From positions 20,491 to 84,490 of the forward strand of contig DASTVZ010000227.1 in the NCBI GenBank assembly GCA_035758845.1: a stretch of 64,000 nt of DNA, read 5' to 3'. Position 1 is the stretch's first letter; every line of letters starts with the position of its first letter. Source of the DNA: Vicinamibacterales bacterium (GTDB lineage Bacteria; Acidobacteriota; Vicinamibacteria; Vicinamibacterales; 2-12-FULL-66-21). Below, piece after piece: positions 4,399-61,920 of the stretch. The notes under the pieces are model-generated. The model made no database searches. It saw only the letters and a program-made list of their open reading frames with translations, and was not told where the DNA came from. The translations under genes and the position numbers were made by a program.

Positions 4399-4917
4399 CT
4401 ATTTCGCCACGCTCAAATTGTTCTTCACATCAAATACACCGTTGATCTCGCGCGCCTTGAGACCCGCCACCGTCTTGTCGCTCTCGCTGTCGACAGCGCC
4501 TTCGAGCGTCACGCGCCCCTGTTTCACGATGATGTGAATCGGCGGCTGGCTCTGGAACCCATACCGATCGAGTGCCGTGCTGTTGTAGATATTCCGTGCC
4601 ACGGCCAACCGAATTGCATCATCCGACGGCGACACCGGCAGCACCTCGATATCGTTGATCACCTGATCGACACCGCCGACCCTCTTCACGCGCCGCTCGG
4701 CGTCGCTCTTGAGCGTCGGCCGGACCACCTGGCCCAAGAGCCTGATTGTTCCGCCGGGTTCGACGCGAAACGCCAAAAAGTCGAACACCGAGTAGTACGG
4801 CAGCAACATCAGCTCGCGCTCCACATCAGCTTCCACACGAAGCGTGCGCGAATCCTTCTGCTGGGCCGGTGCAACTAGCGAGAGCACCGCGGTCAATGCA
4901 ATGGCAACTGGATACAT
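4399..4917 (-). CDS. BON domain-containing secreted protein (OsmY-like)
   Basis: Signal-peptide-like N-terminus MYPVAIALTAVLSLVAPAQQ. Two BON-like segments ending in GRVTLEGAVDSESDKTVAGLKAREINGVFDVKNNL. Confidence 0.7.
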   Translation of the reverse strand: MYPVAIALTAVLSLVAPAQQKDSRTLRVEADVERELMLLPYYSVFDFLAFRVEPGGTIRLLGQVVRPTLKSDAERRVKRVGGVDQVINDIEVLPVSPSDDAIRLAVARNIYNSTALDRYGFQSQPPIHIIVKQGRVTLEGAVDSESDKTVAGLKAREINGVFDVKNNLSVAK

Positions 4918-5024
4918 GACAGAACTCCTGACGCTTCAATTACTCGCTCCAGGATAGCGCTGAACGCTGCTGACGGGTTGTTTGCCCGCACGGTGACTTT
5001 CATGGATCATCTGCTGACCTAGAC

Positions 5025-7027: not shown

Positions 7028-7049
7028 GCTCGATTTCCTCACTGACGAA

Positions 7050-7079
7050 CAATCACCAATCAGCAATCAGCAATTTCAG
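7050..7079. repeat. AT-rich heptamer element, single arm
   Basis: CAATCACCAATCAGCAATCAGCAATTTCAG. The TGA stop of the YitT gene (7076-7078, minus strand) is the TGA inside the terminal CTGAAA. Confidence 0.7.
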
Positions 7080-7924
7080 TGCAATCCCCGATGCTTCACC
7101 ATGCCGCCCTGGACGTCGGCAAGCGCATGATATGTAATGAACGCGCTCTCATCGAGGGCCTGAGCGATGTTCTTCACCCGGCCCACTTCCAGTCTCGTAA
7201 CGACGCAGTACAGGATGTCCTGATCCTCGAAGCTGAGACCGCCGCGGCCTTTGTAGACGGTCACGCCTCGCCCGAGATTCGCCATGATCTGCGCCGCGAT
7301 TTCACCGCTGGCGCGGGAAACGATCGTGATGGCCGTGTATTCCTCGATGCCGTGAATGACGAAGTCGAGCGTCCGCGCGGCGGCGACATACGTCAGGATC
7401 GAATACAGCGCCTTATCGACTCCCAGCACCGACATTGCGACGAGAAATAACGCGACGTTAAAGAGCAGGATGACATCGCCGACCTTGAAGAGATGGCTTT
7501 GCCGGCTAATCAACAGCGCGGCGATCTCGGTTCCATCGAGCACGGCCCCGCCGCGCACCGCGAGCCCGATTCCAGCTCCAAGAAAGAACCCGCCGAATAC
7601 CGCCGTGAGCACGAGATCCGGGGTCACGTCCGGAAATGGAATGGTCGCGAGCGCCACCGACAGGCCACCAATAGCGAGCACACTGCGAAACGCGAACGCT
7701 CCGCCGATTTGGCGGTATCCGAGAGCGACAAACGGAAGATTGACGACCACGATCCAGATGGAGAGCGGTGTGCTACTGACCATCGAGATGAGCATGGAAA
7801 TGCCGGTGACACCGCCGTCGATGAAGTGGCTGGAAAGCAGGAAACCCTTGATCCCCATGCAGGCGGAGAGGATCCCGAGCAGGATGAGCAGACCGTTCAG
7901 CGATTCACGCGCGGCGCGATTCAC
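7076..7924 (-). CDS. YitT family membrane protein (C-terminal DUF2179)
   Basis: 282-aa ORF with a polytopic N-terminal part and a C-terminal GVTVYKGRGGLSFEDQDILYCVVTRLEVGRVKNI segment typical of YitT/DUF2179. Confidence 0.75.
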   Translation of the reverse strand: MNRAARESLNGLLILLGILSACMGIKGFLLSSHFIDGGVTGISMLISMVSSTPLSIWIVVVNLPFVALGYRQIGGAFAFRSVLAIGGLSVALATIPFPDVTPDLVLTAVFGGFFLGAGIGLAVRGGAVLDGTEIAALLISRQSHLFKVGDVILLFNVALFLVAMSVLGVDKALYSILTYVAAARTLDFVIHGIEEYTAITIVSRASGEIAAQIMANLGRGVTVYKGRGGLSFEDQDILYCVVTRLEVGRVKNIAQALDESAFITYHALADVQGGMVKHRGLH

Positions 7925-13948: not shown

Positions 13949-13951
13949 TAT

Positions 13952-14065
13952 CACTCCGAGGGGCTTCGCCCCTCGGACTCCCCCACACGCTCTCTCGCGA
14001 GCCGCTTCGCCGGCTCGCTCCGTGCGCGTGGCTCGCTTCGCTCCGCTCGCTCGCGTCGTCCTTTG
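13952..14065. repeat. GC-rich REP-like element, copy A
   Basis: CACTCCGAGGGGCTTCGCCCCTCGGACTCC...ACACGCTC(T/G)CTCGCG is shared with copies at 34261 and 47774. It has a perfect 9-bp stem CCGAGGGGC/GCCCCTCGG. The distal half diverges into GCTCGCT-rich sequence. Confidence 0.75.
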
Positions 14066-34258: not shown

Positions 34259-34260
34259 GT

Positions 34261-34362
34261 CACTCCGAAGGGCTTCGCCCCTCGGACTCCCTGACACGCT
34301 CGCTCGCGGGGCCCCGCCATCCCCGCTCCGCTCGCGTGGGCTCACTCGCGTACTCGTTCGCC
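34261..34362. repeat. GC-rich REP-like element, copy B
   Basis: About 90 percent identical by eye to copy C (47774-47877) over about 100 nt. The hairpin is CCGAAGGGC-TTC-GCCCCTCGG (one mismatch). The element ends 2 nt from the cdsA ATG. Confidence 0.85.
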
Positions 34363-41948: not shown

Positions 41949-42087
41949 CAGAAAATGCTGAATGCTGATTGCTGAATGCTGATTGACAGTTTCACATCCA
42001 ATCAGCGTTCAGCCAACCAGCCAGCATCAGAATTCAGCCAAGCAACCAAACAATCACCAATCAGAACTCAGCATTCAGCAATTTCAG
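41949..42087. repeat. AT-rich heptamer hairpin element, largest copy
   Basis: The left arm is CAGAAAATGCTGAATGCTGATTGCTGAATGCTGATTGA. The extended right arm is ...AATCAGCGTTCAGCCAACCAGCCAGCATCAGAATTCAGCC...CAATCACCAATCAGAACTCAGCATTCAGCAATTTCAG. The TGA stop of the CARDB protein (42084-42086) lies in the terminal CTGAAA. Confidence 0.8.
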
Positions 42088-45000
42088 TTAATCCTGATCG
42101 TTACCGGCCGCGTGTTGTTGGTCTCCGATGTCTCAGTCACCGCATTGTCCGCGTCACTGACCGCGATGATGTAATACGTCCCCGCTGCCGTGCCTGGCGG
42201 AATCGTCACGGACGCTGGTCCAGAGTTGGTCAGGCCAGGACCGAGGGCACCGACTGGGCGATTCCCGATCTCCGGATCGGTGGTTTCGAACGTGAAGTTC
42301 ACCGACAGATAGAAGCGCGTCGTCGACGCACCCGCCGCGCCGCCGCCTGCGTTCCTGACCGTGTCGGTCACCTGAATCGTCGCGCCTGCGGTCGCCGATA
42401 TCGGGCCGGTGAGCGCCGACACTGTCAGATCCGGTCCAACGCGCGTGGTCCCGTACGATACGTTGTTCGTCTCAGCCGACTCCTGGACGGCATTGGTGTC
42501 GTCGGCGCTGACCAGGATGAAGTACTGTCCGAGCTCCGTATCGGCCGGAATGGTCACCGGGGTACTCCCCGAGCTGGTCTGGCCGGGTTGGAGCGCCGGG
42601 ACATTCCGGCTGCCCAGGAATTTATCGCCAGCATCCAGCGAGAAGTTCGTCGACAGATAGAACGACGTCGTCGAGCTTCCGGCCATGCTGCTGCCCTGGT
42701 TCTTCACCGTGTCGTTCACCGTCAGCGGGAACCCGGCACCGGCGGCGGTCGGTATGGAAGTGGCCGATTCGATGAGATCAGGACCAATCTTGATCGCGGT
42801 ACTGAACTTGACGTTGTTCGCTTCCGATGTCTCAGTCAGTACACCTGGGCCGTCGGCCTTCGCGATGATGTAGTAGGTGCCGGCCGCAGTGTTCGATGGA
42901 ATGTTGACCATCGTCGACCCCGATTCAGTCAGGCCCGCCGTAAGCGCGCCGACCGAGCGACTTGTGAGTGCCGGGTCAGAACTGTCGAGGGAAATGTTTG
43001 GCGACAGGTAGAAGGTGGTTGACGAGGCGGCCGCGTTACCGCCGCCCTGATTCTTCGTCGTATCGCCGACACTGATGGAACTGCCCGCCGCAGCCGTCGC
43101 CGGAACGGTCAACGTGGTGACCACGAGGTCGGGACCGACTGGAATGATCGATCCCGTCTTCACGTTGTTGTTTTCGTTCGATTCCGAGACCGTCAGGTTG
43201 GCGTCCGCCTTCGCGATCAGATAGTAGTTGCCCACAGCGGCGTTGGATGGAACGGTAAACGTGCTTGCGACTGAGTCCGTTACTCCAGGTGCGAGCGAGC
43301 CAACGTTGCGGGTGCCCAGCGAAATGTCGTTAGCGTCGATGACGGTGTTCGTCGACAGGTAAAACGCGGTCACTGACGTGTCGGAGGCTCCAGTTCCCTG
43401 GTTTTTCGTCGTGTCATTCACGGTAATCGGTAAGCCTGCGCCAGCTGTCGTCGGGCCGGTGACCGCCGTGACGACGAGATCCGACGGAGAATCGTTGCTG
43501 ACGATCGTGACGACGGCGCCAGCCGATGCGATCGCGTAGGCTGGATCAGGTGCGACGCTCGCCACGACCGTTTCATTGGCCTCCACCGCCAGATCGTCAA
43601 TCGGCGTGACGGGAACGACTGCCGTTGCGGAACCCGGATCGATGCTGACAACTCCGGACAGGGCAATGTAATCGCTGCCTGGCGTCGCGGTGCCGCCGAC
43701 CGAGTAATGAACGATCAGGGCCTGGGTCGTGTCGCCAGTACGAGCGAACGTAAATGCGCCGGCGACCGTGCCAGCTTCTGTCGCCGTTGCCGTCGATGCG
43801 GTCACCGTCACGGCCGGCGCGTTCGACGGCGGTGTCGACGAGCTGCAGTTCGGCAGTGAAAAAGCTCCGATGCGCGTCTGCCAACCAGCATCGCTCGTGA
43901 CCGCGTAATACTGCTGCGTATACCAGAAGGTGCAGTCGTCGACGGGATCGACCACCATCGAACTGTAGTCCCCCCATCGACCGCTCGTGTTCGTCTGAGA
44001 ACCAGTGCCGACAATCAGATCGCTTTCACCGAGCGTCATCGAGTTCGGAGGATCGGTCGCGAGACGGCCGGTGTAACGAATCGATGGGAACGTGGAAGGG
44101 CCGGTCACACTGAAGCCGAGCGCAAGATTGCCCGCTGAATCCATCGCGACGCTGCCCATCCAGCGATGATCCGAATCCGGCGCATACGTGCCCTGCTGAT
44201 AAATGGACGGCGACGACCCTGGATTCCGGATTTCGTACCAGCGCAGGCCGGCGTGATCCGCGCCGTCGACATCGACCGTGTGGGTCACGACCAGCGATTC
44301 ATGGTCGCCAAAATTTCGATACTGCAATCGATATAGCAGGCGATCTGACATCGCGTCGACCTTCGTCGTCGTGCCGGGCTGCGGCAAACAGTTTCGGGCG
44401 TTCCCGCACATGTCAGAGTCGAATGGCGCCGTGGGCAGCACCGCAGTGCGCGTGAACGACGATTGCGACGGCGTCGTCCAGTCGGCATGGAATTGCCAGA
44501 GCTGGAGTTGATCCGAAGGCGTGTAGCCCCAGGCATCGTCGTCCATCTCGACCAAGTAGGCCGGCGACCCCGTCGGCGGTGCCGGTCCATCGAGATCGGC
44601 CGGAAGCATGCCGCCGAGATTCATATCGGTCGACGCCAGGTCGTAATAGATCGCCGAGGCCGGCTGGCCGGCGAGCATCTTCGCGCGATCGAATGCCACG
44701 ACGCCCTGTCCTGCCCACTGCAGCGAGATCGCCGTGTACTGGTTGATCGACATGTAATAGCCGTCGGGCCACACCGCCAGCTTGGGATAGTCGTTCAGCT
44801 TGTCGAATGAGTACTGATAGCGATAGTAGGCGCCGAGCGGATCGGGCGTCGCCGAGATGGCGATACATTCGTAGAACGGACCGAACAGAAGAATACCGAA
44901 GAAGTTGTTCGGAACTGCGAGCTGGCTCATCACCCAGCGATCGGCGAGGTGATCGTAGCGAACGATCGGATCGCCGTCGTTGCGCGTTTCGCACGGTCCG

Positions 45001-45742: not shown

Positions 45743-46417
45743 TCAGAAAGTCGTGATTGGCATGCCCTCGCGGCACATCGGACATGCCTCCGCCGGGTAG
45801 TTCTCGGGCGCGGCATAGTCGGCAAGCGAGTAATTCGGCACCCCAAGATCAACGATCGCTTCCATGCGATCGAATATCTCAACGGTCGCAATCACCTTCC
45901 CGGCTGCTTCAGTGATGAGGCCGGCGCTGCGCTCGAACGTCTTCCCGGTGTTGCGCACGTCGTCGGCGAGCAGCACGCGCTTTCCCGCCAGCTGCTTGCG
46001 GTAGAAACTTCGCAGGACCGATGCCTCCGCTGCGTTCGGGAGCGGAGCAAAACTGCACGGTGGATGTAAGAGCGGCCGACGACCATCGATCAGCCCCGCG
46101 ATCGTGTGCGCGAGCAGCGCGCCACCGGTCGCAGGTCCGGCAACGACATCTGTCTGCGCGATGATTTCGCCTGGCAGGACGTCGAGGAGATCCTGCGCCA
46201 GCCGCCAGATCGTCGACGGGTGGCGAAAGAGCTGATGCGGGTTCAGATAGACGCGACCGTGAAAGCCATTTCCATAGTCGAAGTGTCCGTCGCGCATCAG
46301 TACTTCGAGATCCTGCAGCGTCTTCAGCGCCTGACGGCGCACATCGTTCTGGCGTGTCACGTCGAATGGCCTCTTCTCAGTCAATAGCGGCATTGCGATA
46401 AACGACCTTTCCTCCAA
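45743..46417 (-). CDS. Phosphoribosyltransferase family protein (divergent OPRT-like paralog)
   Basis: 224 aa. PRPP loop VLLADDVRNTGKTF and a C-terminal CPMC like pyrE's CPLC. The start is uncertain (ATG 46417 or 46393), and both overlap the pyrC 3' end. Confidence 0.7.
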   Translation of the reverse strand: MEERSFIAMPLLTEKRPFDVTRQNDVRRQALKTLQDLEVLMRDGHFDYGNGFHGRVYLNPHQLFRHPSTIWRLAQDLLDVLPGEIIAQTDVVAGPATGGALLAHTIAGLIDGRRPLLHPPCSFAPLPNAAEASVLRSFYRKQLAGKRVLLADDVRNTGKTFERSAGLITEAAGKVIATVEIFDRMEAIVDLGVPNYSLADYAAPENYPAEACPMCREGMPITTF

Positions 46418-47675
46418 CGATGGTGGCGATCACAGCGCCGACCATCTGCCAGCGATCGAACGGCGTGTTCTTCGACTTCGAAACGAGCTTCCCGGCATCG
46501 ATCGTCGTCGGCAGATCCGGCGCGAGCACGGTGATGTCGGCGGGCGCCCCTTCGTCGAGTCGTCCGCCGGGCAGGTGCAGCACGCGAGCCGGATTCACCG
46601 ACAGCAGTTCGATCATCCGCGTGAGCGAAATCCGACCGGGATGCAGCAGTCGATCGAAAACGATCGGCACCGCGGTCTCGAGGCCGACAATTCCAAACGG
46701 CGCGTGATCGAATTCGACCATCTTCTCGTCAATGTGATGCGGCGCGTGGTCGGTCGCGATCACGTCGACGCTGCCGTCCGCGATGCCCTCGAGCATGGCA
46801 TCACGGTCGGCGGTCGCGCGAAGCGGCGGATTCATCTTGAAATTGGTGTCGTACTTGACCGCCCCGTCGAGTGAGTCATCAGTCAGGGTGAAATGATGCG
46901 GAGCCACTTCGCAGGTGACCTTGACGCCGCGATCTTTTCCGGCGCGCACAGCGCGGAGCGACTGATGCGCGCTCATATGCGCGATATGCACGTGCGCGCC
47001 GGCAAGCTCGGCGAGCGAGATATCGCGCTCGACCATGATCGATTCGGCTTCGCCCGGGATTCCCCGGAGACCAAGGCGCGCTGCCACGTATCCCTCGTGT
47101 GCGACACCATCGCCTTTGAGCGACGGATCTTCGCAGTGGTTCACGATCGGGACGCCAAGCATTTCGGCGTACTCGAGCGCTCTCCGCATCAGAAGCGCCG
47201 TGGCTACCGGGCGGCCGTCGTCGGTGAACGCCACGCACCCTGCATGCTTTTGTTCACCCAGCTCGGCGAGCTGCTCGCCTTTCGAGCCAATCGAGACAGC
47301 GCCGATTGGATACACGCGAGCGCGTCCCGCTTCTGTTGCCTTCTTCAGAATGAACTCGGTGATGCCGGCGTGATCATTAACCGGCTCGGTGTTGGGCATA
47401 CACGCAACCGCCGTGAAGCCACCCGCGATGGCCGATGCCGTACCCGTCGCGATCGTCTCTTTATGTTCCTGTCCCGGCTCTCGCAAATGGACATGGATGT
47501 CGATCAGTCCGGGCGACACGATCCAGCCGCGCCTGATTTCAAAGACGCTCGCACCCTCGACCGGAAGGTCTTTACCGATACGCGCCACGACGCCGTTGTC
47601 GATGAGGATGTCAAAATCGCCGTCGCGACCGTTGGCGGGGTCGATCACGCGGCCGCCCTTAACAATTAGTTTCAT
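46377..47675 (-). CDS. pyrC: Dihydroorotase
   Basis: 432 aa. GLIDIHVHLREPG metal motif and the DHAPH motif. Confidence 0.92.
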   Translation of the reverse strand: MKLIVKGGRVIDPANGRDGDFDILIDNGVVARIGKDLPVEGASVFEIRRGWIVSPGLIDIHVHLREPGQEHKETIATGTASAIAGGFTAVACMPNTEPVNDHAGITEFILKKATEAGRARVYPIGAVSIGSKGEQLAELGEQKHAGCVAFTDDGRPVATALLMRRALEYAEMLGVPIVNHCEDPSLKGDGVAHEGYVAARLGLRGIPGEAESIMVERDISLAELAGAHVHIAHMSAHQSLRAVRAGKDRGVKVTCEVAPHHFTLTDDSLDGAVKYDTNFKMNPPLRATADRDAMLEGIADGSVDVIATDHAPHHIDEKMVEFDHAPFGIVGLETAVPIVFDRLLHPGRISLTRMIELLSVNPARVLHLPGGRLDEGAPADITVLAPDLPTTIDAGKLVSKSKNTPFDRWQMVGAVIATIVGGKVVYRNAAID

Positions 47676-47678
47676 CGC

Positions 47679-47768
47679 CTAATGCACATCCAGCGGATCC
47701 ATCGAATCGCGCCCCGATAACAAATACAACACGGCCATTCGCACGGCGACACCATTCGAGACCTGCTC
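47679..47768 (-). pseudogene. Displaced duplicate of the pyrB 3' end (last 29 codons plus TAG)
   Basis: Translation [29 protein letters not shown] is identical to the C-terminus of pyrB (47878-47967). The two copies differ at 7 nt, all synonymous. It sits 3 nt upstream of the pyrC ATG. Confidence 0.85.
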
Positions 47769-47773
47769 GTATT

Positions 47774-47877
47774 CACTCCGAGGGGCTTTGCCCCTCGGAC
47801 TCCACTGCACGCTCGCTCGCGGGGCCCCGGGATCCCCGCTCCGCTCGCGTGGGCTCACTCGCGCGCTCGTTCGCCGC
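47774..47877. repeat. GC-rich REP-like element, copy C
   Basis: CACTCCGAGGGGCTTTGCCCCTCGGACTCCACTGCACGCTCGCTCGCGGGGCCCCGGGATCCCCGCTCCGCTCGCGTGGGCTCACTCGCGCGCTCGTTCGCCGCC. It lies exactly between the two pyrB 3'-end copies. Confidence 0.85.
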
Positions 47878-48855
47878 CTAATGCACATCCAGCGGATCCA
47901 TCGAATCGCGGCCGGATAATAGGTACAACACCGCCATTCGCACGGCGACACCATTGGAGACCTGCTCCAGAATCACCGAGAACGGACCGTCGGCAACCGC
48001 CGAATCAATTTCGACGCCACGATTCATGGGACCAGGGTGCATCACGATCGCGTCCGGGGCCGCCCGGCGCATCCGCTCCGGCGTCAGTCCGAACAGCGTG
48101 AAGTATTCACGCACCGACGGAATGTAGTGGCCGTGCATCCGTTCATGCTGGATCCGGAGCATCATCACGACGTCGGCCCCTTCCACCGCCTCGTCGACCG
48201 AGGTCGTCGCGTGGACACCGAACTCGGCGATATGTGACGGCATGAGCGTCGCCGGTGCGCACGCCCACACGTGGGCGCGCATCGTATTCAGCAAGGCGAC
48301 GTTCGACCGGAGAACACGGCTGTGCATCAGGTCGCCTACAATTGCGATCTTCAGGCCGGCCAGACGGCGCTTGTGCTCGCGGATGGTAAAGGCATCGAGC
48401 AGCGCCTGGGTTGGATGCTCGTGCATGCCGTCGCCGGCGTTGATGATCGTCGAGCGACACATCCGCGCCAACAGGTGCGGCGCACCGGATGACGAGTGGC
48501 GCATGACGATCATGTCGGGAGACATGGCCTCGATATTTCGCACCGTGTCGAGCAGCGACTCCCCCTTGGTGACGCTCGAGGTCGCAGTCGCAATGCTCAG
48601 CGTGTCGGCGCTGAGCCGCTTCTCCGCGATCTCGAACGACGTCCGGGTGCGCGTGCTCGGCTCGAAGAACAGGTTGACGACCGTCCGCCCCCGCAACGTC
48701 GGCACCTTCTTGATCGCGCGGCCGCCAATCTCCTTCATCGCTTCAGCGGTGTCGAGGATCAGACTGATTTCATCGGCCTCGAGGCCGTCGATTCCGAGCA
48801 GGTGCCGCGACTTCAACGTGACGGCAGCCGTGGGTGTCTCCGCGCTCGTCGTCAT
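47878..48855 (-). CDS. pyrB: Aspartate carbamoyltransferase catalytic subunit
   Basis: 325 aa. [13 protein letters not shown] and HPGPMNRG motifs. 4-nt overlap with pyrR. Confidence 0.93.
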
Positions 48856-49388
48856 GCTTCCCCCTCGATGAGCACTTCGTCTTTTCCATCGATTTCCTGC
48901 AAGTGCACCTGCACGCTCTGTTTCAACGAGGTCGGCAGGTTCTTCCCGACGTAGTCCGCCTTGATTGGAAGCTCGCGATGACCGCGATCCACCAGCACGA
49001 CCAGCTGAATGGCTTGCGGGCGACCGAAGTCGATCAGGGCGTCAAGCGCGGCCCGAATCGTTCGCCCCGTGTAGAGCACGTCGTCGACCAGCAGGATCTT
49101 CCGAGAGTCAATCGAGAACGGGATCTCGGTTTTACGGACCAGCGGCTGCGGCCCTACGGGATGCCGCATCAGGTCGTCGCGATAGAGCGTGATATCCAGG
49201 GCTCCGGTCGGCACGTCGTCGCCGTTGATTTCATGAAGCGATCGCGAGATGCGTCGCGCCAGCGGCACCCCTCGCGTGCGGATGCCGACGAGCGCAATTT
49301 CATCCAGGCCGCGATTGCGCTCGAGGATCTCGTGAGCCATTCGTGTCAGCGCGCGCGCCATCCGATCGGCATCCATCACGAGCGCCAT
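48852..49388 (-). CDS. pyrR: Bifunctional pyr operon regulator / uracil phosphoribosyltransferase PyrR
   Basis: 178 aa. [11 protein letters not shown] and PRPP loop [13 protein letters not shown]. Confidence 0.9.
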
Positions 49389-49550
49389 CGAGCGCTCCGT
49401 AACGACAACGAGATTCGCGGAAATTGCGGCCGCAGCGGTCGCCGCAGCAGAGTCCAGGCAGGAACGAGCACGTCATCACCTCTTGGCGGCCTCACAGGGC
49501 CGCGTTAAAGAGTTCGCTTGATGGTATCACAAAGCGCTCAGCTGTCAGCT

Positions 49551-53120: not shown

Positions 53121-53845
53121 TCGCGCTGGACGTCGAGAGCGCCGCGAAGGCCCTCGCGCTCGCCGATTCTCTTCGCGGCATCGCCGGCGGATTCAAGATC
53201 GGCAGCCGCCTGTTTACCTCGGAAGGACCGTCGATCGTTCGCGCCCTGGTCGAGAAGCGCGATCGCGTGTTCCTCGATCTCAAATTCCACGACATTCCGA
53301 ACACCGTTGCTCAGGCTGTGTCCGCGGCCGCATCGCTCGGTATCTGGATGCTGAACGTGCACGCGTCGGGTGGCAGAAAAATGATGGAAGCTGCGCGCGA
53401 CGCGGCGAAGGAGGCGGCGACCCGTGCAGGACTGCCACCGCCACTGGTCATCGCGGTAACCGTCCTGACCAGCATGAATGCGCCGGCCCTCGAGGAAACC
53501 GGCTACGCCGCAGCCGGGCAGAAAGACGGCGGCACTGCCGGTGTTCTCGATCAGGTTGTCCGCCTCGCGCGGCTGGCCGAGGCTTCCGGACTCGACGGTG
53601 TCGTCGCATCGGCGCAGGAGACGGCAATCCTCCGGCGACGCTGCGGCCCCCGGTTTTCAATCGTGACGCCCGGCATTCGCGGTGGTGGCGCGGCGGCAGC
53701 GGGCAAAGACGATCAGGAACGCACTATGAGCGCTCGCCAAGCCATCGCAGCGGGTGCCAGCTATATCGTTGTTGGACGGCCGATTATTGCGGCGCCAGAC
53801 CCGCGGGCCGCAGCGGAGGAGATGATAAGAAATGTGGAGTTCTGA
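53105..53845 (+). CDS. pyrF: Orotidine 5'-phosphate decarboxylase
   Basis: 246 aa with a GTG start. LVALDV and [11 protein letters not shown] motifs. Confidence 0.9.
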
Positions 53846-53910
53846 ATGCTGAAGGCTGAATGCTGAATTCAATCAATCAGCATTCAGCCATCAGCATTCA
53901 GAATTTTCAG
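53841..53910. repeat. AT-rich heptamer hairpin element between convergent pyrF and pal
   Basis: TCTGAATGCTGAAGGCTGAATGCTGAATTCAAT / CAATCAGCATTCAGCCATCAGCATTCAGAATTTTCAG form near-complementary arms. The pyrF TGA (53843-53845) is in the first CTGAATG unit. Confidence 0.85.
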
Positions 53911-53920
53911 TGTGCAGCCA

Positions 53921-59706: not shown

Positions 59707-59794
59707 GAAGAAATGCTGAATGCTGTATTCTGAATGCTGAATTTGTTTGGGCTTGCGTCATTCAGCATTCAGCAATCAGACTTCAGCATTTCAC
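59704..59794. repeat. AT-rich heptamer hairpin element between the convergent RR-PilZ and P-type ATPase genes
   Basis: Arms GAAATGCTGAATGCTGTATTCTGAATGCTGAAT and ATTCAGCATTCAGCAATCAGACTTCAGCATTTC (33 nt, few mismatches), about 17-nt loop. It starts at the TGA of the RR-PilZ gene. Confidence 0.85.
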
Positions 59795-59796
59795 CT

Positions 59797-61920
59797 TCAC
59801 TCGCGCAACAGCCTCAACGCGTTAGCGATCACCACCAGCGACGCTCCCATATCCGCTGCCACCGCCATCCACAGCGTCGCCGTACCGGTCACCGCAAGGA
59901 TCAGGAACGCTCCCTTCAACACGATCGAGAACGCGATGTTCGCTCTGATGTTCCGCATCGTCGCGCGGCTGAGACGCAGGGCGTAGGGAATCTTCAGCAG
60001 TTCGTCGGCCATCAGAGCCACGTCGGCGGTTTCGAGCGCCGCATCGGTGCCGGCGGCGCCCATCGCGATGCCGACGTCGGCAGCGGCGAGTGCCGGAGCA
60101 TCGTTAACGCCATCGCCGATCATCGCCAGTGCCCCGTACTTGTGACGGAGATCTTGTACTGCCGACACTTTATCTTCGGGCAGGAGAGCCGCGCGGTACC
60201 CGTCGAGATCGAGCGACTCGGCGAGCGTCTTTGCCGCGGATTCCTGATCGCCGGTCAGCAGAATCACATGCTGGATGCCCTGATGGCGCAGCAGATCAAC
60301 GGCATCGTGAGCGGCTTCGCGCGGTTCGTCGGCAACGCCAATGACACCGATCGGCGTGCCGGCGCCAGCCACCATCACCGAACCGCAACCGCGCTCGGTG
60401 AATGCGTCGAGCGACTCCTCCATCTGCGGCGAGCACAGCCGACGCTCCTCGAATAGTCGATGGCTACCAACGACGATCGCGTGTCCGGCGACGCGCGCCT
60501 CGGCGCCACGACCGGGAAGCGCCTGAAAAGCGTCGACCGAGATCGGACGTATTCCTGAATCCGTCGCGTATTCGACGATCGCACGTCCGATTGGATGCTC
60601 GGATCGCATTTCCAGGGACGCAGCGAGTCTGACAACTTCGAGAGGATCGACGCCGACCATCGGCTGCACACCCACGACACGAAGGCGTCCGTGGGTCAAG
60701 GTGCCCGTTTTGTCGAAGGCGATACAGCGGATCGACGCCATCTTCTCGAGATGCGCACCACCTTTGATCAGGACGCCCTTGCGTGCGGCGGCGGCGAGCG
60801 CCGAGACAATGGACACAGGCGTCGAGATCACCAGTGCGCATGGACATGAGATCACCAGGAGCACAAGCGATCGGTAGAACCACGTCGACCAGCTGCCAGA
60901 GAGAAAGAGCGGCGGCGCAAGCGCCACGACGACGGCAAGCGTCAGCACGACCGGCGTGTAGACGCGGGCAAAGCGATCGACGAAGGCCTGACTCGGCGCG
61001 CGCTGCGCCTGAGCGCGCTCGACGAGATGAATGATGCGCGCGAGCGTCGAATCACGCCGCAACCGGGTGACGACGACGTCGAGCGCGCCGCGACCGTTGA
61101 TCGTGCCGGCAAACACTTCGTCGCCGGCTGTCTTCTCAATCGGCAGCGATTCGCCGGTGACGGGCGCCTGGTTCACATAGCTGTCGCCGGCCAGTACGCG
61201 GCCATCGAGGGGCAGTTTTTCACCCGGGCCTACCAGGATCGTGTCGCCGACCCGCACATCGTCCACCGGAACACGTTGCTGATGGCCGTCGCGGCGGACG
61301 ATCGCGTCGGCCGGCGCGAGATCCATCAGGGCGCGAATCGCGCCCCGTGCGCGATCCATGGCTCGGGCCTCGAGCAACTGCGCCAGCGCAAACAGGAACA
61401 CCACCGACGCCGCTTCGGTCCATTCGCCGAGCACCATTGCGCCGGCAACTGCAATCACCATCAAGACATTGATGTCGAGATGGCCCGACCGGATTGAGGT
61501 GAGGGCCCGTCGCGCCGTGAAGATGCCTCCGAGCGCGATCGAGACCGTGAACGGTATCCAGAGCCACGACGCGGGGGCGTGGAAAAGAGACGCGATCAGG
61601 CCGAGCGCGAAGGCCACGCCGGACCACACCAGCAGCTGGAGACGACTTCCTGCTGAGGCAGCGACAGGCGCCGGCTCTTCGTGTTCCAACCACGCGCGCA
61701 TACCTGTCTGAGCGACGGCTTCGGCGATTGAACCGGTGGACAGCTTCGCGGCGTCATACTTGATCCGAAGCCGCTGACCGATGACGTCCGCGTCCAGCGA
61801 TTCGAGACCGGACAGCCGTTTCAGCCGCCGCTCGAGGATTGCCACCTCCTCGTGACAGTCCATGCCTTCGACTTTGAACGTGGACTCCGCGTGGAGTTCG
61901 CAGACCTGGCACGTGCTCAT
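59797..61920 (-). CDS. Heavy-metal translocating P1B-type ATPase (Zn/Cd/Pb-type CPC motif)
   Basis: 707 aa. N-terminal HMA-like domain (KVEGMDCHEEV), TM CPC (SCPCALVISTP), DKTGTLT and GDGVNDAPAL. Confidence 0.9.
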   Translation of the reverse strand: MSTCQVCELHAESTFKVEGMDCHEEVAILERRLKRLSGLESLDADVIGQRLRIKYDAAKLSTGSIAEAVAQTGMRAWLEHEEPAPVAASAGSRLQLLVWSGVAFALGLIASLFHAPASWLWIPFTVSIALGGIFTARRALTSIRSGHLDINVLMVIAVAGAMVLGEWTEAASVVFLFALAQLLEARAMDRARGAIRALMDLAPADAIVRRDGHQQRVPVDDVRVGDTILVGPGEKLPLDGRVLAGDSYVNQAPVTGESLPIEKTAGDEVFAGTINGRGALDVVVTRLRRDSTLARIIHLVERAQAQRAPSQAFVDRFARVYTPVVLTLAVVVALAPPLFLSGSWSTWFYRSLVLLVISCPCALVISTPVSIVSALAAAARKGVLIKGGAHLEKMASIRCIAFDKTGTLTHGRLRVVGVQPMVGVDPLEVVRLAASLEMRSEHPIGRAIVEYATDSGIRPISVDAFQALPGRGAEARVAGHAIVVGSHRLFEERRLCSPQMEESLDAFTERGCGSVMVAGAGTPIGVIGVADEPREAAHDAVDLLRHQGIQHVILLTGDQESAAKTLAESLDLDGYRAALLPEDKVSAVQDLRHKYGALAMIGDGVNDAPALAAADVGIAMGAAGTDAALETADVALMADELLKIPYALRLSRATMRNIRANIAFSIVLKGAFLILAVTGTATLWMAVAADMGASLVVIANALRLLRE

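Follow-up and report, generated by a model that had tools for sequence, protein, structure and literature searches.

The pyrB 3' end is present twice in the pyrR-pyrB-pyrC operon

The window, as the term is used here, is the whole stretch of 64,000 nucleotides that was analysed. It holds the operon pyrR-pyrB-pyrC, in which pyrB and pyrC are separated by a repeat element, termed E, and by a second copy of the pyrB 3' end. The features of the locus are the following.

48852-49388, minus strand: pyrR, first gene of the operon pyrR-pyrB-pyrC (ORF; Pfam Pribosyltran on orthologues)
47878-48855, minus strand: pyrB, aspartate carbamoyltransferase catalytic chain, 325 amino acids (ORF; PF02729 and PF00185 on homologues)
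47876-47967, minus strand: proximal copy of the repeat, the real pyrB 3' end, bearing the 7 variant synonymous sites
47773-47875, minus strand: element E, a 103-nucleotide GC-rich structured interspersed repeat, GGCGAACGAG...GGAGTCCGAGGGGCAAAGCCCCTCGGAGTGA, with three copies in the window
47777-47799, minus strand: terminal 10-bp hairpin of E, followed by G-TGA (structure prediction and alignment of copies)
47769-47772, minus strand: 4-nucleotide filler, ATAC, between the end of E and the distal copy
47677-47768, minus strand: distal copy, 29 codons with TAG and GC(G), outside pyrB, retaining both the native allele and, toward pyrC, the native TAG-GCG-ATG junction
47679-47888, minus strand: predicted bridging ORF, 69 codons plus stop (ORF listing)
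46377-47675, minus strand: pyrC, dihydroorotase, 432 amino acids (ORF; Pfam Amidohydro_1/DHOase on orthologues)

The last 29 codons of pyrB and its TAG (47878-47967) recur as a direct repeat at an offset of 199 nucleotides (47679-47768). Both copies translate to the same 29 amino acids and differ at 7 nucleotides in 6 codons (C/G, G/C, C/T, C/T, A/G, C/G and C/G, adenine being involved in one only). All seven differences are synonymous; of the single-base changes that these codons could undergo, 24.5% are synonymous, and a score of 7/7 has P≈5e-5 under neutral decay. The differences are confined to the first 57 nucleotides of the repeat (7/57 versus 0/39, Fisher p=0.039), while the last 33 coding nucleotides and the adjoining TAGGC(G), 36 nucleotides in all, are the same in both copies. 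Downstream, the pyrC ATG lies 3 nucleotides past the distal TAG. A sequence-only reading of the locus had described this duplication, its purely synonymous differences, the identity of the 33 nucleotides nearest the stop and the native TAG-GCG-ATG junction of the distal copy, and all four descriptions were borne out. We first computed the repeat as 98 nucleotides (47671-47768 and 47870-47967); because TTCGCC at 47870-47875 is part of the conserved end of E, CTCGTTCGCC, the duplicated target was corrected to about 92 nucleotides (47677-47768 and 47876-47967).

The bridging ORF starts at an ATG that overlaps the end of pyrB, passes E in the single open frame of the element, continues through the distal copy in frame with PyrB and stops at the native TAG, 3 nucleotides ahead of the pyrC ATG. 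Exact look-ups of the PyrB and PyrR proteins of the window found no record elsewhere; the PyrC protein has an identical match in a contig from the Logan collection, L211.

The spacer is a complete copy of an abundant repeat

The 64 kb window contains three copies of E, against a chance expectation of zero, and soil metagenome contigs yielded at least 120 matching stretches. The two other copies in the window are the following.

34260-34362, minus strand: second E copy, 90% identity, between uppS-like and cdsA-like genes
13951-14053, minus strand: third E copy, of the other 5' subtype, with GGAGTGA-TA abutting the downstream ATG and without flanking duplication

The second copy likewise abuts the downstream ATG directly (GGAGTGA-C) and has no flanking duplication. 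The spacer had earlier been read as a 104-nucleotide REP-like element at 47774-47877. 'REP-like' is a fair description, while the extent needed revision, to a 103-nucleotide element at 47773-47875 and a 4-nucleotide filler.

On the sense strand, the minimum free energy z-scores of E lie between -2.4 and -4.8. Both hairpins are conserved among 63 aligned copies, the terminal one being invariant and the middle one covarying (GC/AU, GC/CG), and the U.G pairs of the middle hairpin are compatible with the sense strand only. The GGAG directly ahead of the TGA of E resembles a Shine-Dalgarno sequence. The two ends of the element, GGCGAACGAG at the 5' side and CGGAGTGA at the 3' side, are not inverted repeats, and inspection of the consensus by eye revealed no GTAG/CGTC tag. 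A search of E against Rfam 15 returned nothing at an E-value of 1 or less, and a PyrR-binding attenuator or other known RNA in the spacer was rejected on this ground; the sole match in the Rfam search was a weak PyrR-site upstream of pyrR.

Copies of E are closely associated with gene boundaries. Among the matches listed, 52 of 115 copies have the start of a long ORF within -3 to +15 nucleotides of the TGA of E, and in 18 of 115 a sense ORF of at least 100 codons runs through E to the terminal TGA (21 before removal of those that also abut the stop of a convergent gene). Pfam identified three of the read-through ORFs as real genes, encoding a GT4 glycosyltransferase, a methyltransferase and a Diphthami_syn_2 protein. 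E is thus an abundant structured repeat family at Vicinamibacterales gene boundaries, absent from Rfam, that supplies GGAG and TGA just ahead of start codons and can contribute a C-terminal tail to real proteins.

Long duplications flank few copies of E

The flanks of 81 evaluable E copies were compared by local alignment with mismatched controls. Flanking repeats above control, of 83-92 nucleotides, were found in 2 of the 81 copies among the matches listed, and none in the other 79. The only long-repeat cases in this set are the window and contig L100. Short decayed target duplications at other copies were also considered and rejected, their flank scores being no higher than those of mismatched controls. 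Long duplication is not the normal insertion mode of E; any mechanism offered for it is a guess.

L100 carries a perfect 83-nucleotide duplication (83/83) of a corC-like 3' end and its TAG around E, just upstream of era, and the same structure was assembled independently in a second sample (L142). Because these repeats are identical throughout, the duplication appears to arise in situ from the genome's own sequence. Within the 62 nucleotides upstream of E in L100, 37 are common with the E copy of L091, which has a longer 5' module, and 26 are not accounted for. A further case was found in a distant acidobacterial contig, L025, with a 28-nucleotide duplication at its own pyrB/pyrC overlap. Duplication lengths in the three known cases are therefore 28, 83 and 92 nucleotides. 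Each has a bridging ORF: 1411-1659 in L100, and in L025 an ORF whose start is the duplicated pyrC ATG and whose stop overlaps the real ATG as ATGA. Three independent cases thus combine tight operon junctions with insertions that carry long copies of the end of the upstream gene, a pattern that gives a testable starting point for asking how mobile repeats are tolerated in operons.

Relatives have an empty site, and the distal copy carries the native allele

The closest relatives are L081 and L082, assembled independently of each other; PyrB identity is 99% at the amino acid level, and nucleotide identity is about 96.2% on both sides. Their junction reads pyrB..CAC TAA CG ATG..pyrC, with neither E nor repeat, and the pyrB-pyrC junction of other relatives is likewise tight or overlapping. 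At 7/7 copy-variable sites L081 and L082 agree with the distal copy, the proximal copy being the odd one out; this identifies the distal copy as the native allele, kept as a fossil. It has zero private changes. Sites 47941 and 47929, together with CAT-TAG-GCG, are common to both window copies and differ in L081 (CAC-TAA-CG).

The pyrB-E-copy arrangement has two junction k-mers, CATTAGGCGGCGAACGAG and GGAGTGAATACGAGCAGG. The pattern GAYGTNCAYTAGGCGGCGAACGAG had 0 matches in metagenome contigs; no second genome with pyrB-E-pyrB' was found there.

A diverged tract extends from the proximal copy into pyrB

Comparison of the whole of pyrB with L081 revealed a cluster of differences that is not limited to the repeat.

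47911-48106, minus strand: diverged tract, a putative homologous-recombination import, covering the first 57 nucleotides of the proximal copy and about 140 nucleotides upstream of the repeat

There are 27 differences in the 237 nucleotides of 48147-47911, as against 16 in the remaining 708 nucleotides of pyrB (Fisher p=9e-8), so that the tract is about 11% diverged from L081, 5-fold above the remaining pyrB (2.3%). Of these 27 differences, 26 are synonymous. In pyrC, by comparison, differences from L081 are spread evenly at 3-4 per 90 nucleotides, with no cluster. The tract is 11.4-17.7% away from each of L081, L083, L085, L088, L089 and L090, and no donor was found among the sampled lineages (11-18% away). 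For the part from 48106 to 47968 polarity was assigned by parsimony, with outgroups saturated at those sites.

We consider the tract to be the putative signature of an import by homologous recombination. Gene conversion from a paralogue was rejected, as no second pyrB-like sequence is present in the window. Mutagenic repair synthesis near the rearrangement was also rejected, since 26/27 synonymous differences would be impossible for unselected mutations arising in one event. The argument of the sequence-only reading that a synonymous-only pattern implies a diverged functional allele holds, and recombination with a related strain, which it had listed as an alternative, is now favoured as the source of the differences.

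The same reading had preferred a different origin, in which an integrative element with a site-specific recombinase brought a replacement 3' end for pyrB, the two copies being attL and attR, and was mostly deleted later. Direct repeats that share a 36-nucleotide 'core' without mismatch at the 3' end of a gene, and an empty site in relatives, are as such a model predicts; neither discriminates between the models. Four observations run against it. The spacer is an intact 103-nucleotide family member with normal ends rather than a deletion remnant. Integration would give the order B-O-P' ... P-O-B', with a native proximal and a foreign distal arm, and the reverse is observed. Divergence continues for about 140 nucleotides past the repeat boundary, to 48106. 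Finally, the same small element and architecture are found at an unrelated target, corC-era, which is unexpected for a site-specific system. We have abandoned this model as very improbable.

An alternative that takes the diverged tract into account is a one-step acquisition of the type of homology-facilitated illegitimate recombination (HFIR). A foreign segment consisting of a diverged pyrB 3' end and E would have joined by homology at its left end, near 48106-48147, and illegitimately at its right end, 92 nucleotides upstream of the recipient stop, the recipient 3' end becoming the distal copy. The scheme has the economy of needing one event instead of two, the foreign-looking tract does run from about 48106 toward E with the distal copy native, and microhomology is present at both junctions, between TAGGCG and GGCGAACGAG at the first and between the E end CTCGGAGTGA and pyrB CTCGGTGATTCTG, just upstream of the repeat, at the second. 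The region beside E is difficult to reconcile with this scheme. There the 33 nucleotides and TAGGC(G) are identical in both copies and include the lineage-specific CAT-TAG-GCG (CAC-TAA-CG in L081). Conservation in PyrB is lowest in this tail, where nucleotide divergence among relatives is 6-21%, and a donor about 12% diverged should differ within it (P≈0.006 for 0/39 at the observed rate). Moreover, a switch at the microhomology would have left a sequence unlike the ATAC filler, and the 83/83 identity in L100 demonstrates that the architecture is possible without a foreign allele. We therefore regard a one-step acquisition as unlikely.

It is also possible to suppose that metagenome assembly merged two co-occurring strains into a chimera, which would explain the mosaic tract, the tandem arrangement, or the two together. 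The PyrB and PyrR of the window are without a record elsewhere, no second contig has the junction, and related soil strains do co-occur (L082 and L088, for example, come from one JGI sample). In addition, L211 (SRR26663189), which has 1 mismatch in 1629 nucleotides to window positions 47711-46083, breaks at the repeat: its first base is the first base of the 36-nucleotide exact repeat. The contig comes from an independent read set, and a k-mer graph breaks in this way where one stretch has two left contexts, which counts in favour of the duplicated arrangement; the break could equally reflect two co-occurring strains. The joint between the end of E and the pyrB interior, GGAGTGA-ATAC-GAGCAGG, on the other hand, shares no k-mer with any single-copy arrangement, and mis-traversal of a graph therefore cannot make it unless some genome has it. 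A chimeric patch of 200 nucleotides would further need long exact matches on both sides to a strain about 12% diverged, and the analogous structure of L100 was assembled independently twice (L100 and L142). An artefact thus seems improbable, more so than a one-step acquisition.

A proposed history of the locus

On balance, we favour a history in which E inserted with an in situ long target duplication and the working pyrB later received an import. The ancestral state would have been pyrB-TAG-GCG-ATG-pyrC in a Vicinamibacterales (Acidobacteriota) genome, with both events following the split from the closest sampled relative. In the first, a single non-canonical insertion or repair event would have placed E 2-3 nucleotides past the pyrB stop and also copied the last ~92 nucleotides of the target, giving A-E-A': an intact pyrB end, E, and a non-coding second end with the native upstream context of pyrC, the two copies being identical at the outset. 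Candidate routes to the 92-nucleotide duplication are template switching or microhomology-mediated repair, or aberrant transposition with widely staggered joints. The filler ATAC is unlike both the consensus flank of E (T-N-A) and the native pyrB TTCTG.

In the second event, homologous import of about 200 nucleotides from a donor allele roughly 11-13% diverged would have replaced ~48106-47911 of the functional pyrB. The right end of the import would lie inside the proximal repeat copy, and the poorly conserved tail, outside the import, would have stayed identical. Both alleles would have evolved as working genes, which would account for the wholly synonymous nature of the seven copy differences. 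We infer the order of the two events, as well as the in situ origin of the duplication. This explanation requires two independent events at one spot. The locus would then be a case in which a 'suspiciously synonymous' duplicate arose without any integrative element, the dead copy being the native fossil and the live copy having been overwritten. Such a case is instructive yet largely ordinary, and known biology is not overturned by it.

A separate question, compatible with this two-event history, is whether the distal copy is kept as a functional adaptor. The bridging ORF might couple pyrC to upstream translation by termination and re-initiation, with melting of the E hairpins. A bridging ORF is present in 3/3 duplication cases (47888-47679 in the window, 1411-1659 in L100, and that of L025), many E copies resemble a coupling device in having GGAG, TGA and a start codon within a few nucleotides, and some real genes extend through E as far as its TGA. 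Against this, the chance of each bridging ORF arising by accident in GC-rich DNA is roughly 0.1-0.3, and the proposal was made after the fact; elsewhere E also abuts start codons without a duplicated target; and the distal copy, with no private changes, is too young to reveal selective constraint. A retained adaptor is thus a tentative suggestion, to which we give a low probability.

A broader proposal is speculative, and we doubt it to a similar degree. In Vicinamibacterales, E might represent a mobile repeat of a kind not yet described, 'operon-compatible' in that it brings its own Shine-Dalgarno sequence and stop and can be read through by ribosomes. Insertion at tight or overlapping junctions would proceed, or survive, only by way of 28-92 nucleotide duplications of the end of the upstream gene, and the bridging ORF would keep the downstream essential gene translationally coupled, making pyrB-E-pyrB'-pyrC a functional adaptor rather than neutral debris. 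The long duplication would then reflect a new mode of insertion, such as the use of a nascent 3' end at the replication fork by a strand-transfer enzyme.

Comparison with known systems

REP-type repeats carry a GTAG/CGTC tag and are paired with a cognate RAYT (Y1 HUH) transposase. E resembles REP/BIME sequences and MIRUs in being about 100 nucleotides long, GC-rich, hairpin-forming, high in copy number and dispersed at intergenic or intercistronic operon positions. It differs from REP in having no such tag by eye, and it lies outside Rfam 15. A 92-nucleotide target duplication is not among the described features of REP or MIRU insertion. According to PMC3184786 (after Supply et al. 1997), MIRUs are co-oriented with the operon and their ORF ends meet neighbouring stop and start codons; their filled sites are reported to have tetranucleotide direct repeats (PMC3184786). 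E shares the co-orientation with MIRUs and, in a subset of its copies, the meeting of ORF ends with flanking stop and start codons. Like Rickettsia palindromic elements (PMC3184786), E can be fused in-frame to protein genes (18/115 copies among the matches listed). At pyrB it is unlike them, since the stop lies upstream of E and PyrB is not extended, and E is found at gene ends rather than in domains.

Two other classes were considered and set aside. E has no terminal inverted repeats and 79/81 listed copies lack a flanking repeat above the control level, unlike a MITE dependent on a DDE transposase. The differences between the copies are synonymous and not adenine-specific, and the neighbouring ORFs are pyrR, pyrB and pyrC, unlike a diversity-generating retroelement. 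The locus resembles attL/attR duplications in that 3'-end direct repeats flank an insert, the gene is intact and the site is empty in relatives; it differs in having no recombinase or cargo between the repeats, which enclose only 4 nucleotides and one complete E.

Tandem duplications with templated insertions, homology-facilitated illegitimate recombination and flap-derived duplications form a further set of comparison classes. The E cases may be likened to these in their variable length, in the few-base microhomology or filler at the junctions and in an insert copied from a genomic repeat, a likeness by architecture drawn from three cases. A literature search for long target duplications at REP or MITE insertions, or for bacterial HFIR-type duplications, found no direct precedent.

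In bacterial population genetics, imports by homologous recombination make mosaic genes. The tract in pyrB is like such imports in being sharply bounded at about 200 nucleotides, 5-fold elevated in divergence and almost purely synonymous. It differs in that the donor lineage is unsampled and in that the pre-import allele is preserved next to it as a non-coding duplicate, which gives polarity directly. The locus would thus document, with unusual directness and with its own internal polarity, how an uncultured acidobacterium from soil received a short homologous import.

Duplication of the pyrB 3' end around a structured repeat

The last 29 codons of pyrB together with its TAG stop codon (47878-47967) are present again at 47679-47768, and between the copies lies a structured GC-rich repeat, which we call E.

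Features of the pyr genes and of repeat E (window positions)
48852-49388, minus strand, pyrR
47878-48855, minus strand, pyrB (325 aa)
47876-47967, proximal copy, the true pyrB 3' end
47773-47875, minus strand, E copy 1 (103 nt), between the pyrB-end copies
47677-47768, distal copy, next to pyrC
47888-47679, minus strand, bridging ORF
46377-47675, minus strand, pyrC
34260-34362, minus strand, E copy 2 (90% identity), ending GGAGTGA-C-ATG and abutting the next gene start
13951-14053, minus strand, E copy 3, ending GGAGTGA-TA-ATG and abutting the next gene start

Both copies encode the same 29 residues; their 7 nucleotide differences fall in 6 codons and are all synonymous, as a sequence-only reading had described. 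That reading held a synonymous-only pattern to be unexpected from neutral decay, and the calculation agrees: of all single-base changes possible in the duplicated codons, 24.5% are synonymous, and decay would yield 7/7 synonymous with P≈5e-5. Identity near the stop codon, also remarked on there, extends over the last 36 nt, all seven differences lying within the first 57 nt (Fisher p = 0.039). The repeat finder returned a slightly over-long repeat of 98 nt, in which TTCGCC at 47870-47875 is the conserved end of E; the duplicated target is ~92 nt (47677-47768 and 47876-47967). Just upstream of pyrR, at 49460-49515 (minus strand), a weak Rfam match to the PyrR-binding site (RF00515, 31 bits against a gathering threshold of 54, E = 0.14) would be consistent with attenuation of the operon leader by PyrR.

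Over 1629 nt, Logan contig L211 (SRR26663189) and window 47711-46083 show a single mismatch; this read set contains a near-identical strain. L211 starts precisely where the 36-nt exact repeat starts, a position that fits two left contexts for the 36-nt stretch in an independent read set, and that a strain mixture could equally produce. No second assembly of the full pyrB–E–copy–pyrC arrangement was found among metagenome contigs or by exact-protein look-ups, which would favour a chimeric assembly. Such a chimera is nevertheless very improbable, since graph mis-traversal could not create the joint between E and the pyrB interior unless that joint is real in some genome.

Polarity of the two copies

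The pyrB–pyrC junction is tight or overlapping in most acidobacterial relatives of the window's source, a Vicinamibacterales genome. The closest PyrB (P0001, 99% amino acid identity) comes from L081 and L082, contigs independent of each other, with ~96.2% identity to the window on either side of the junction. The comparison of relatives' junctions proposed earlier found an empty site there (..CAC TAA CG ATG..), with neither E nor repeat. As to which copy better matches another lineage, a question raised by the same reading, it is the distal one. Because this copy has the L081 state at all 7 sites where the window copies differ, carries zero private changes, and has its three coding differences from L081 in common with the proximal copy, sequence comparison identifies it as this lineage's native allele and the functional proximal copy as the altered one. 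Both window copies end in TAG, L081 in TAA. The comparison also shows that E was inserted after this lineage had separated from that of L081.

A relative with PyrB at 97% amino acid identity (L083/L084, 3979-4048; GCA_046734955.1 and GCA_046724295.1) has another kind of insert, of 67 nt, at its pyrB–pyrC junction, without duplication and ending ..TAACTGA-ATG; its 5' module, GACGACGCGAGCGAGCG.AGCGAAGCGAG, is in common with the window E copy at 13951-14053. These repeats seem to have landed at this junction repeatedly. Another acidobacterial relative (L008, ~4900-4990) has GGGCTGAG repeats on both sides of the pyrB stop codon, in the pyrB end and in the spacer before pyrC.

A diverged tract in pyrB

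Differences from L081 are clustered within pyrB, with 27/237 (11.4%) at 48147-47911 versus 16/708 (2.3%) at 48855-48148 (p = 9e-8); pyrC is flat, at 3-4 differences per 90 nt. The cluster spans 48106-47911: its upstream end lies ~140 nt beyond the repeat boundary, farther into pyrB, and its other end falls within the proximal copy. All but one of its 27 differences are synonymous (26; the exception is P267A), which rules out mutagenic repair as their source. No paralogous source of the tract was found within the window, and the tract is 11-18% distant from every sampled lineage; the donor is therefore unsampled. Judged by these substitutions, the tract has the hallmarks of a short segment imported by homologous recombination, its source being an allele that had diverged yet was functional, and it overlaps the proximal copy. 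Such an import would explain why differences in the highly conserved 19-residue segment are synonymous only; the poorly conserved tail would be identical in both copies because it lies outside the import. The sequence-only interpretation was thus right that diverged functional alleles were involved, and recombination with a relative, which it listed as an alternative, is what 48106-47911 points to; its preferred integrative element did not hold.

Formation of the arrangement

That preferred explanation was an element that integrated with a replacement 3' end and was mostly lost later. In att-type integration, crossover in the core O gives B-O-P' ... P-O-B', with the proximal arm native and the distal arm element-borne. 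The observed polarity is the reverse (proximal diverged, distal native), the divergence reaches outside the repeat, and the insert is one intact copy of E whose ends are those usual for the family. An unrelated target, a corC/hlyC-like gene–era junction on contig L100, shows this architecture too.

We propose instead that the insertion of E between pyrB and pyrC duplicated an unusually long stretch of its target, and that a later recombination import overwrote part of functional pyrB, ending inside the proximal copy. We infer this order, duplication first and import second. A single step, in which foreign DNA brought both the pyrB 3' end and E and was joined illegitimately, is disfavoured: the 36 nt adjoining E are identical in both copies, with lineage-specific states, and are the gene's least conserved part, where finding no difference at the observed rate has P≈0.006. 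Given a 4-nt junction microhomology (TAGGCG meets GGCGAAC), the similarity of the E end (CTCGGAGTGA) to the stretch of pyrB that immediately precedes the repeat (CTCGGTGA), and a 4-base filler (ATAC), template switching or microhomology-mediated repair may fit the 92-nt duplication of the proposed insertion better than a fixed-stagger transposase.

Duplications at other gene junctions

Metagenome contigs scanned with the E 3' hairpin gave at least 120 matching stretches, representing 115 distinct copies among the matches listed. In a screen of 81 evaluable E copies, flanking repeats stand out only at the window and at L100 (L142 is the L100 sequence assembled from another sample); the window copies at 34260-34362 and 13951-14053 have no flanking duplication. 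At L100 1328-1661, a perfect 83-nt duplication (the last 79 coding nt, TAG and A of the corC/hlyC-like gene) flanks 62 nt, E and TA directly upstream of era, and the distal copy retains the native TAG-AGCGCC-ATG junction with era. Because these repeats are identical, the architecture probably forms in situ, with the genome itself supplying the duplicated sequence. For 26 of the 62 nt upstream of E no source was found.

An independent 28-nt duplication with period 83 covers the pyrB/pyrC overlap in a distant Acidobacteria MAG, RA.bin138 (L025, 4918-5030), flanking a different GC-rich insert of 53 nt. Proximal GAA TAG and distal GAG TGA both encode Glu and stop, and an ORF from the duplicated pyrC ATG ends by overlapping the real pyrC start codon in ATGA.

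E at gene boundaries

A 30-nt E probe finds exactly three sites in the window (none expected by chance), each oriented as its flanking minus-strand genes. Among the 115 listed copies (L091-L210), the triplet after GGAGTGA is stop-like in 85 (TTA 48, TGA 13, TCA 10, TAA 8, CTA 4, TAG 2), E abuts the stop codon of a convergent ORF in 29, a long ORF starts at -3 to +15 nt from the E TGA in 52, and about one-third have ATG 0-6 nt after E. This placement points either to gene boundaries as preferred targets or to selection favouring these sites. Sense ORFs of at least 100 codons run through E to its terminal TGA in 18 of the 115 (21 if copies also abutting the stop of a convergent gene are counted), with E-encoded tails like ..ANERASEPTRAE.G..GPASERVGESEGRSPSE*; L125, L170 and L115 are among these loci. 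Pfam identifies three of these ORFs as real genes, one each for a GT4 glycosyltransferase, a methyltransferase and a Diphthami_syn_2 protein. E follows the window's pyrB TAG in the same phase.

In all three duplication cases (window, L100, L025) a bridging ORF leads out of the upstream gene's stop region, crosses the insert and ends at the native stop or overlap beside the downstream start. A putative role in preserving translational coupling would suit the GGAG-TGA-start design of E and the real genes that read through it, but we consider it unlikely: each bridging ORF has a chance origin of ~0.1-0.3, and many E copies abut start codons without duplication.

E as a member of a repeat family

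E folds into a 10-bp terminal hairpin and a longer middle hairpin, the latter covarying across 63 aligned copies (one pair is GC or AU, another GC or CG) and containing U.G pairs workable on the gene-sense strand only. A search of Rfam 15 with E gave no match. E is a REP/MIRU-like structured repeat of gene boundaries and not a deletion scar; 'REP-like', the earlier description, suits this multicopy, hairpin-forming 103-nt element.

The window also holds an AT-richer interspersed repeat of heptamer-like units (AATGCTGA / CAGCATTCAGCAATCAG...TTTCAG) in at least five places (2855-2937, 7042-7082, 41953-42090, 53823-53913 and 59711-59798). Three diverged 87-nt direct repeats at 42286-43071 (61-74% identity, spacing 348-351 nt) resemble repeats within a coding sequence.

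A second conserved module with the palindrome GGTTTCAAAACC (e.g. ..GGTTTCAAAACCGAGTACGGGCC..) lies 10-30 nt upstream of many E copies (L109, L133, L135, L140, L150, L164, L172, L176, L204 and others); the pyrB copy is without it. The finding at pyrB combines known processes, repeat insertion with a long target duplication and then recombination import, and the E family, of REP/MIRU kind, is apparently undescribed. E seems to be one module within a mosaic, BIME-like repeat system, and at L186 1-210 E plus TGATGGAGCAGC is duplicated in tandem with a period of 116 nt, right at the downstream gene's start, an arrangement that resembles MIRU/VNTR loci.
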